Below, piece by piece: positions 37,660-39,504 of a stretch of 64,000 nucleotides of DNA. The notes under the pieces are model-generated. The model saw nothing but the letters and a program-made list of their open reading frames with translations. It was not told the origin of the DNA and did not search any database. Each line of letters opens with the position of its first letter. Position 1 is the stretch's first letter. The stretch lies in NCBI RefSeq assembly GCF_056712565.1, contig NZ_CM160072.1. The stretch is one strand, 5' to 3'. Both the position numbers and the translations under genes were made by a program.

Positions 37660-38346
<687 letters not shown>

Positions 38347-39504
38347 TCAGGATGCGGGGATAACCAACGGTTTATTCCCGCTTAGCTCGGTCACCAGGTC
38401 ATTGATGCCATCGCTCATATTTTTAAAGCGCGTCAACGGCGAACGAGTGACCACCACAAACGCGCCAATATTCTTCTGCGGGATCATCGCCATATAGGTA
38501 ATGAAACCGCCACCACCACCTGTCTTCTGAATAATCCCCGGACGACCCTCTTTCGGGGCCATATATACCCAGCCTAAACCAAGCGCATCCGCTTTGCCGG
38601 GGACATCCATGCCAATCACTTTTGTAAACTGCGCGCGCTGATAAATCAACGTCTGCATGCGATCAGCCTGGTTACTGCGCTGATAAAAATCAGATGACAA
38701 ATACTGCTGCATCCAGCGCATCATATCGCCTGGCGTGGAATAGACGCCGCCGCTGCCAATTGCCGCCAGCGTGTTATTGCACGGACTGGCACCGCGCTCA
38801 GCAACCATTAAACGGCGGCACTGATCCGGTGAGGGGGTGTAGGTGGTGTCTTTCATCCCCAACGGACGGGTAATCTGCTCTTCAAACAACTGGGTATAAG
38901 GCTTGCCGGACGCATTCGCCAGTGCATCTGCCAGCAGATCGAATGCGAGGTTGGAGTACGCGGCCTGGCTGCCCGGCGCGGCTTTTAGTTTGGCAGTGGA
39001 AAGGTATTTCCAGCGTTGCTCGCGCGTTGGCCAGACAAATACCGGACGATGTGCCGCGCCACCGGGCTGTTCACGGGGCAGGGCGCTGGTATGGGTTGCC
39101 AGATTCACCAGCGTAATGGGCGTCCCATTGTAGGTCGGTACGCGTGCGCCTGGCGGAGCATATTTACTTAGCGGATCGTTTAACTTCACGGTCCCCTGGT
39201 CGAGCAATTTCACCAGCATCTCACTGGTCATTAACTTGGTGAGGGAAGCAATACGTATGACGGAATCCAGCTGCGGGCGAACGTTATTACCAGGTCGCGT
39301 TTCGCCATAACTGCGAAAGACGCGCTGGTTACCGTCGATAACAACCAGCGCCATCCCCGTGGCACCGCTGCCGTAAAAAATATGATCGGCATAACGATCG
39401 ACAATATCAGAGGCAAACTCCGGTTCAGTGATCGGCTGCGCCGCATGGACGGAGGTCAATGACGCCGCATACAGCACGGCAGAAAAAAGCAGACTACGTT
39501 TCAA
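38347..39504 (-). CDS. ampH: Penicillin-binding protein AmpH (class C beta-lactamase fold)
   Basis: 385 aa; signal peptide; SLTK active-site motif (IASLTKLMT). Confidence 0.9.
   Translation of the reverse strand: MKRSLLFSAVLYAASLTSVHAAQPITEPEFASDIVDRYADHIFYGSGATGMALVVIDGNQRVFRSYGETRPGNNVRPQLDSVIRIASLTKLMTSEMLVKLLDQGTVKLNDPLSKYAPPGARVPTYNGTPITLVNLATHTSALPREQPGGAAHRPVFVWPTREQRWKYLSTAKLKAAPGSQAAYSNLAFDLLADALANASGKPYTQLFEEQITRPLGMKDTTYTPSPDQCRRLMVAERGASPCNNTLAAIGSGGVYSTPGDMMRWMQQYLSSDFYQRSNQADRMQTLIYQRAQFTKVIGMDVPGKADALGLGWVYMAPKEGRPGIIQKTGGGGGFITYMAMIPQKNIGAFVVVTRSPLTRFKNMSDGINDLVTELSGNKPLVIPAS

Follow-up and report, generated by a model that had tools for sequence, protein, structure and literature searches.

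The abutting convergent genes iprA and ampH and a candidate ampH terminator within the 3′ codons of iprA

Anatomy and conservation of the iprA–ampH junction

The genes iprA and ampH lie tail to tail in the window, by which is meant the whole 64,000-nt stretch of DNA that was analysed (contig NZ_CM160072.1 of assembly GCF_056712565.1). Their coding sequences and stop codons occupy the following window positions:

37723–38346, + strand: iprA coding sequence, 207 amino acids by the RefSeq annotation (222 in the mechanical ORF, which starts at 37678)
38344–38346, + strand: iprA stop codon TAA, which closes the ORF 37678–38346
38347–38349, − strand: ampH stop codon TGA (TCA on the + strand), which closes the ORF 38347–39504
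38347–39504, − strand: ampH coding sequence, 385 amino acids, encoding a DD-carboxypeptidase/endopeptidase

The letters at 38341–38349, read directly, are TAT TAA TCA, and 0 bases separate the TAA of iprA from the TGA of the convergent ampH. The initial annotation, which used the old name yaiV for iprA, had reported that the two stops abut with no spacer, and this is borne out both by the letters and by the RefSeq annotations of strains HS13-1, FORC_044 and MG1655. HS13-1 is 100% identical to the window over the 2 kb compared, and its iprA and ampH genes span 37723–38346 and 38347–39504 in window coordinates. In K-12 MG1655, iprA is located at 394506..395129 and ampH at 395130..396287 (gap 0), and the gap is also 0 in the O157-type strain FORC_044. 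Public annotations of K-12 and of thousands of other genomes already show the zero gap. The RefSeq product name of iprA is ‘hydrogen peroxide resistance inhibitor’; the HTH_46 domain (PF15977) is present in iprA homologues, and the Beta-lactamase domain (PF00144) is carried by adjoining genes in related loci. An annotation error in one of the two stops was ruled out, as both C-termini (…PSEY* in IprA and …PAS* in AmpH, kept across genera) and both stop positions are conserved. A literature search found no paper on the iprA/ampH junction, yaiV and ampH co-occurring merely as entries in gene lists.

Of 5,426 complete E. coli genomes, 5,420 contain the 2-kb iprA/ampH locus and 5,410 have a match of at least 95% identity to a 140-nt junction query; among the matches listed, all those of full length are exactly 140 nt. 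Conservation of the abutment, which had been proposed as a check, is thus upheld, with a gap of 0 throughout the Escherichia examined. Together with 33 loci of other species surveyed outside E. coli, the gaps are distributed as follows:

0 nt: all Escherichia (coli, fergusonii, albertii, whittamii and the cryptic clades), Citrobacter rodentium and some other Citrobacter
+1 nt: the C. freundii complex
+3, +5 and +13 nt: one each in three further lineages
−4 nt, the two stops sharing TTAA or TTAG: Enterobacter cloacae, Leclercia and Kluyvera
42–44 nt: Salmonella only
157-nt GC-rich insertion: one C. amalonaticus strain

Over the Enterobacteriaceae, Salmonella excepted, the gap ranges from −4 to +13 nt. 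Compactness of the junction is therefore ancestral in the family, and a gap of precisely zero has not been maintained throughout. The annotated first 50 kb of the window contain ten convergent pairs, with spacings of 0, 16, 16, 23, 39, 58, 100, 120, 174 and 225 nt, and half of these gaps are too short for two separate terminators. In an E. coli reference genome, 75 convergent pairs have coding sequences that truly overlap (PMC4161906). The zero gap is not unusual and falls within a continuous range of spacings, in which at least 75 convergent pairs of E. coli are tighter still. The Enterobacter cloacae, Leclercia and Kluyvera orthologues overlap by 4 nt, as do convergent overlapping pairs with, for example, a 4-nt TTAA shared stop, whereas iprA and ampH of Escherichia touch and share 0 bases (in the window, as in every Escherichia locus, the gap is exactly 0) and are by definition not an overlapping pair. 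The abutment alone therefore matters little, being publicly annotated and having many tighter convergent counterparts.

Hairpin H1 and the U-rich tract on the ampH strand

Terminators need not be intergenic, and two adjacent elements of the ampH strand lie inside iprA:

38301–38337, − strand: hairpin H1, predicted by folding, starting 9 nt past the ampH stop; ΔG −20.1 kcal/mol
38294–38304, − strand: U-rich tract UUUAUUCAUUU, immediately adjoining the H1 core on its 3′ side

The H1 RNA, UGAAGGCAAACGGUUG-AUAG-CGACC-A-GUUUGCCUUUA, is predicted to form 16 pairs, and its arms constitute a perfect 9-nt inverted repeat. The GC-containing core (38305–38333) has a ΔG of −15.3 kcal/mol, compared with −20.1 for the full stem-loop and a mean of −15.8 over the 31 sequences described below, and the 96-nt segment of the − strand folds with a z score of −3.5 relative to shuffles. 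Intrinsic terminators have a U-rich tract of about 7–9 nt immediately 3′ of the stem; UUUAUUCAUUU is interrupted, with 5 U in the first 8 nt and 8 U in the 11. The tract is the complement of iprA codons E191-M-N-K194, and H1 and the tract together lie wholly within iprA, at codons E191–P204 (194–206 when H1 is placed by itself). The stem-loop is thus both stable and suitably positioned, on the ampH strand 9 nt past the TGA. The earlier statement that the junction leaves no room for terminators fails at this point, as a terminator-like hairpin and U-tract for ampH, with comparative signatures of selection, are accommodated inside the last iprA codons. The ampH transcript should, on this prediction, have its 3′ end at about 38293–38298, which corresponds to K-12 395,076–395,081. 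Such an end, lying within the coding sequence of the neighbor, would be of the kind that the initial annotation had named as contrary to its reading. A consensus terminator scan over 2.5 kb gave 5 hits against 2.8 ± 1.8 in shuffles, which is not an enrichment; it caught the inner stem of H1 alone, and gave nothing at three further closely spaced convergent junctions of the window. Rfam gave no match at E ≤ 1 in window positions 37600–39900 or in the Salmonella junction.

Pairing of H1 was assessed in 31 distinct junction sequences (51–100% IprA identity, gap-free alignment) from Escherichia, Citrobacter, Salmonella, Enterobacter, Leclercia, Kluyvera, Yokenella, Trabulsiella and Pseudenterobacter. 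In this set, 89.9% of the alignment cells are paired, pairs 13-43 to 20-36 being formed in every cell, and double changes from AU to GC are found at three core pairs, namely 13-43 (4 sequences), 19-37 (4 sequences) and 25-30 (10 sequences). The number of cells with a two-sided change and the covariation score are higher than in any of the 500 shuffles and in all slid controls, and the number of H1 pairs with a double change is not above that of the shuffles (96 of 500 reached the same count); as the 31 sequences are phylogenetically related, these shuffle tests overstate significance. RNAalifold independently gives the same H1 helix, with an 11-pair core.

The changes also bear on the strand in which the helix acts. 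Wherever only one side of a core pair has changed (12 cells in about ten lineages), the ampH strand retains a G·U pair and the iprA strand would have an A·C mismatch, and pairing amounts to 89.9% on the − strand versus 81.5% on the + strand. The H1 fold is also stable on the + strand, the − strand being the more stable in just 20 of the 31 sequences, and energies in the C. freundii complex slightly favor the + strand fold (−15.7 versus −14.1). H1 is assigned to the ampH strand mainly because of the G·U pattern, the U-tract and its position, and folding energy gives modest support to this assignment.

Synonymous diversity, computed from 28 iprA genes aligned by codon, follows the outline of the hairpin. 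For the codons of the stem and U-tract (191, 193–197 and 201–204) it is 0.14, compared with 0.49 for the rest of iprA (Mann–Whitney p = 3.5e-6), and the lowest 10-codon window in the whole gene begins at codon 188. The U-tract codons have values of at most 0.09, and loop codons 198–200 vary normally (0.55–0.72). Gly195 is invariably encoded by GGC, the non-preferred TTG codon of Leu203 is either kept or replaced only by CTG, which is compatible with wobble pairing, and AAA/AAG at Lys196 covaries with CGT/CGC at Arg202, two third-codon positions. UUUAUUCAUUU is identical in nearly all sequences of Escherichia, Citrobacter and Salmonella. By these comparisons of aligned sequences, H1 carries signatures of selection.

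Two lineages depart from this arrangement. In Enterobacter cloacae, Leclercia and Pseudenterobacter the U-tract is absent and the hairpin is kept, with CCGGCUCAU in place of the tract in Enterobacter and Pseudenterobacter. The retention of the hairpin without the tract indicates that the function of H1 may not require a U-tract, and H1 may also, or instead, be a pause site or a barrier to 3′-exonucleases. In Salmonella, a separate hairpin with an AUUUUUG tail is found within the 42–44-nt spacer on the ampH strand, and H1 has been kept behind it, which indicates that the embedded arrangement is not obligatory.

The persistence of a tail-less hairpin in the Enterobacter clade is also a reason for considering that H1 might be conserved for a role other than termination, such as an exonuclease barrier that stabilizes ampH mRNA terminated by Rho, a structure in iprA mRNA, or a palindromic protein-binding site in the DNA. 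The perfect inverted repeat of the arms and the slightly stabler + strand fold of the C. freundii complex are also in favor of such a role, as is a weak Rho-dependent region on the − strand inside ampH, at 395316, that was detected by comparison with and without BCM (score 2.48; 56–247 reads per 800-nt window) (Adams et al., 2021; PMC7815308) and suggests that Rho may also limit transcription of this strand. However, one-sided changes that are tolerated only as G·U pairs on the − strand speak against both a DNA site and a + strand RNA, a + strand hairpin would be inside a translated ORF and unfolded by ribosomes, and the U-tract codons are synonymously frozen in Escherichia, Citrobacter and Salmonella. 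Conservation for such another role is therefore unlikely.

The iprA side and published expression data

Downstream of the iprA stop, two features of the + strand come into question for the ending of iprA transcripts:

38354–38381, + strand: weak candidate hairpin H2, starting 7 nt beyond the iprA TAA and within the final 11 codons of ampH; ΔG −13.4 kcal/mol
38467–38624, + strand: C-rich, G-poor stretch (C/G 1.7–2.7), 120–280 nt past the iprA stop, antisense to ampH

The H2 RNA is GCGGGGAUAACC-AAC-GG-U-UUAUUCCCGC, followed by UUAGCUCGG, and has no U-tract. Its pairing across species (86.8%) is no better than that of column shuffles (85.8%), the ampH codons that bear it have normal synonymous diversity with no constraint, and it has been lost in Salmonella, C. 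amalonaticus, Yokenella and Enterobacter. H2 was therefore rejected as a conserved iprA terminator. Untranslated RNA that is rich in C and poor in G is the usual setting for Rho-dependent termination. The stretch at 38467–38624 is, judging by its composition, a candidate site for the loading of Rho onto untranslated read-through RNA of iprA, which is probably ended by Rho.

Strand-specific counts for each gene, obtained under standard laboratory conditions, are available for wild-type cells and two RNase III mutants, with iprA listed as yaiV (Huang et al., 2020, Table S1c; PMC7373196). In RPM, they are as follows:

wild type: ampH sense 76.9, antisense 2.5; yaiV sense 1.76, antisense 5.46
rnc-14: ampH sense 99.5, antisense 1.64; yaiV sense 0.90, antisense 7.83
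rnc-38: ampH sense 90.0, antisense 5.46; yaiV sense 1.36, antisense 4.22

On the ampH strand, the density over yaiV (669 nt) is 12% of that over ampH (1158 nt) in the wild type, and 8–14% across the three strains. In the wild type, an ampH tail of 50 nt alone would yield about 3.3 of the 5.46 RPM of yaiV antisense. As far as per-gene counts, which are coarse, can resolve it, the drop in density is consistent with ampH transcripts that end near the junction. On the + strand, the densities over yaiV (0.0026 RPM/nt) and antisense to ampH (0.0022 RPM/nt) are about equal and correspond to a general antisense background (about 2 RPM). The initial annotation had held that transcripts of each gene must read into the other. 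As the gap is zero, each transcript must indeed extend some way into the other gene, but for ampH this part of the claim is limited by a density of only 8–14% past the junction. For iprA the initial annotation may be nearer the mark, as read-through is compatible with the lack of a conserved terminator and with the similar + strand density on both sides, but it is at background level only.

Term-seq in three conditions gave no 3′ end at K-12 3950xx–3951xx, where expression is too low to decide (Adams et al., 2021; PMC7815308), and the TERMITe supplements do not mention iprA/ampH.

Overlapping bidirectional terminators of convergent pairs, with ynaJ-uspE as the model pair, have been described by Ju, Li and Liu (2019), and these sites are said to be unlike intrinsic terminators and to depend on polymerase traffic from both sides. 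A terminator of this kind at iprA/ampH would work through hairpins that pause the polymerases and through head-on and trailing collisions that release them, and would need neither Rho nor a canonical terminator. Like members of that class, iprA and ampH are a convergent pair with predicted overlapping 3′ ends and an RNA hairpin in the overlap; hairpins on both strands flank the junction, H1 is conserved even where the U-tract has been lost, and the class is said to control hundreds of E. coli genes. However, the mechanism is reported to work best for highly expressed pairs, and iprA is nearly silent (1.8 RPM), so that collisions would be rare. The two sides of the junction also differ from that class, the ampH side being of the intrinsic type, with H1 resembling an intrinsic terminator in Escherichia, Citrobacter and Salmonella, and the iprA side having no conserved signal. 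In that class both transcripts are expected to stop at one shared hairpin region, where their ends overlap, with no need of Rho or a U-tract; H1 lies upstream of the iprA stop and cannot be the end point of iprA transcripts, and H2 is not conserved. Collision-dependent termination is quite unlikely to be the mechanism here.

The initial annotation had also raised antisense interference between the two genes. In its strongest form, the junction would have no terminators and transcription would proceed far in both directions, so that antisense RNA or polymerase collisions couple IprA and AmpH in the manner of an excludon. Besides the zero gap itself and the lack of a conserved iprA terminator, the nearly equal + strand densities on the two sides are in keeping with this idea, as is p19-captured dsRNA from ampH, which reaches 36–197 RPM depending on the data set and 168–197 RPM in two of them, the listed duplexes being located 600–840 nt upstream of the ampH stop (Huang et al., 2020; PMC7373196). 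However, the level of ampH dsRNA is similar to that of the neighbors yaiU and yaiW, and ampH is not singled out. Antisense RNA of ampH (2.5 versus 76.9 RPM) amounts to about 3% of the sense RNA, which is the pervasive background level of other genes in Table S1c (PMC7373196), and ampH sense RNA is little changed in the two RNase III mutants (from 76.9 to 99.5 and 90.0 RPM). The fall in ampH-strand density past the junction and the presence of H1, which is terminator-like and under selection, likewise speak against transcription that proceeds unhindered.

Excludons and 3′ antisense overlaps processed by RNase III, as described in PMC12288877 and PMC7373196, resemble this junction in its unavoidable complementary tails and in some p19 dsRNA from ampH. 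They differ from it in that iprA/ampH has no long abundant antisense RNA, no RNase III-dependent change in ampH and no evidence of mutually exclusive expression. Neither abundant antisense RNA nor reciprocal RNase III-dependent expression is seen in the published counts under standard laboratory conditions. Antisense interference is thus unsupported, and excludon-like coupling is very unlikely. A conditional version, in which iprA lacks any terminator and its strong induction under some stress lets read-through antisense RNA lower AmpH via RNase III or collisions, is highly improbable; if true, it would link an oxidative-stress regulator to peptidoglycan remodeling and would make the conserved tightness functional, not incidental.

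Interpretation of the junction

The preferred reading, to which we assign a probability of about 0.68, is that iprA/ampH is an ordinary compact tail-to-tail junction, in which the ampH terminator is embedded in the 3′ codons of iprA and iprA, having no conserved terminator of its own, is probably ended by Rho. A polymerase leaving ampH would transcribe H1 from 9 nt past the stop, followed by the U-rich tract, and would terminate about 50 nt inside iprA. The same DNA would encode both the C-terminal EMNKGKLVAINRLP of IprA and the terminator of the opposite strand, and the 3′ codons of iprA would be constrained twice because the same bases specify EMNKGKLVAINRLP and the ampH signal. The rare iprA transcripts would run untranslated into antisense ampH and most likely end at H2 or by Rho 120–280 nt downstream, and the ampH and iprA mRNAs would share a short complementary 3′ tail. 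The analysis shows the abutment and its conservation, selection on H1 and a coarse fall in ampH-strand coverage; we infer that H1 terminates transcription and does not just protect 3′ ends, and the exact 3′ ends are likewise predicted positions. The 3′ ends must overlap by about 50 nt, and there is no sign that the shared tail is a regulatory device.

The nearest counterpart among known systems is an intrinsic terminator reaching into the ORF of a convergent neighbor. Like intrinsic terminators found inside the coding sequence of a convergent neighbor, the ampH element has a GC-containing stem-loop and a U-rich tract, located 9 nt past the stop of the gene that it serves. It differs from them in that stem and tail are wholly in the neighboring ORF, the U-tract is interrupted and the 3′ end is a predicted one. 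The whole element lies inside the iprA ORF because the gap is zero.

A zero-length intergenic region thus does not mean that a terminator is absent. The modest new element at this locus is the dual-use sequence at the 3′ end of iprA, which is well supported; the C-terminus of IprA and an RNA signal of the neighboring gene are placed on the same bases, with a frozen stem and tail, a free loop and compensatory changes. Editing of the iprA 3′ end, C-terminal tagging of IprA or deletion of iprA may therefore disturb the formation of ampH 3′ ends.

Elsewhere in the window, a terminator-like hairpin of ddlA (43040–43010) also extends into the coding sequence of yaiZ, and ddlA/yaiZ is a second example of the design seen in H1 of ampH.

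Terminator-like hairpins at gene junctions

The design of H1, the terminator-like RNA hairpin that lies on the ampH strand within the last iprA codons, recurs once more in the window, at ddlA/yaiZ, where the hairpin likewise runs into the coding sequence of the neighbouring gene. The ddlA terminator-like hairpin, with 13 pairs and the tail UCAGUUUCUU, bridges the 23 nt between yaiZ and ddlA and extends into yaiZ.

Window 43010-43040, - strand: ddlA terminator-like hairpin

H1 is retained with GC-strengthened stems at the iprA 3′ ends of Enterobacter cloacae, Leclercia, and Pseudenterobacter (loci L033, L034, L036), in which CCGGCUCAU or CCUUUCCAU takes the place of its U-tract; H1 may have a U-tract-independent role in the three taxa. 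In Salmonella, iprA and ampH are separated by a spacer of 42-44 nt, which holds a hairpin of its own on the ampH strand, with the tail AUUUUUG, and H1 within iprA is also retained, such that the spacer hairpin and H1 apparently constitute tandem ampH terminators.

Salmonella iprA/ampH spacers (coordinates of each locus):
L020 3125-3168
L028 3125-3168
L029 3125-3166

Citrobacter amalonaticus S646 carries a 157-nt GC-rich, REP-like palindromic insertion precisely at the iprA/ampH junction, which puts a new stop in place of the ampH C-terminus.

L011 3125-3281: junction insertion, Citrobacter amalonaticus S646

The Trabulsiella odontotermitis locus (L031) is without a called ampH, and ampH-like 3′ sequence begins 2 nt after iprA (downstream of 3172); this may represent a pseudogene or a gene-calling gap.

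Features within ampH

Codons 1-10 of ampH, which apparently starts with TTG, form the synonymous diversity minimum of the entire gene (0.095 vs a mean of 0.46; 28 species-level sequences). This minimum suggests a constrained 5′ element, e.g., translation initiation, mRNA structure, or promoter overlap.

Window ~39475-39504, - strand: ampH codons 1-10, synonymous diversity minimum

A weak bicyclomycin-sensitive region has been reported within the ampH ORF at K-12 395316 (- strand; ~window 38533), with a Rho score of 2.48 (p = 5.5e-5) at very low counts (Adams et al., 2021; PMC7815308). With bicyclomycin, coverage is higher downstream than upstream of this region (Adams et al., 2021), a hint that - strand transcription starts internally or is pervasive.

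Neighbouring genes

The EhaB/YaiT-family autotransporter gene upstream of iprA (window 34650-37637) is intact in this strain; the K-12 copy, yaiT, is a pseudogene that IS3 has split. An isochorismatase-family gene lies between ampH and sbmA in Enterobacter, Trabulsiella, and a 'Raoultella'-labelled locus; Escherichia is without it.

Isochorismatase-family gene, ampH-sbmA interval (coordinates of each locus):
L027 4483-5016
L031 4467-5000
L033 4492-5025
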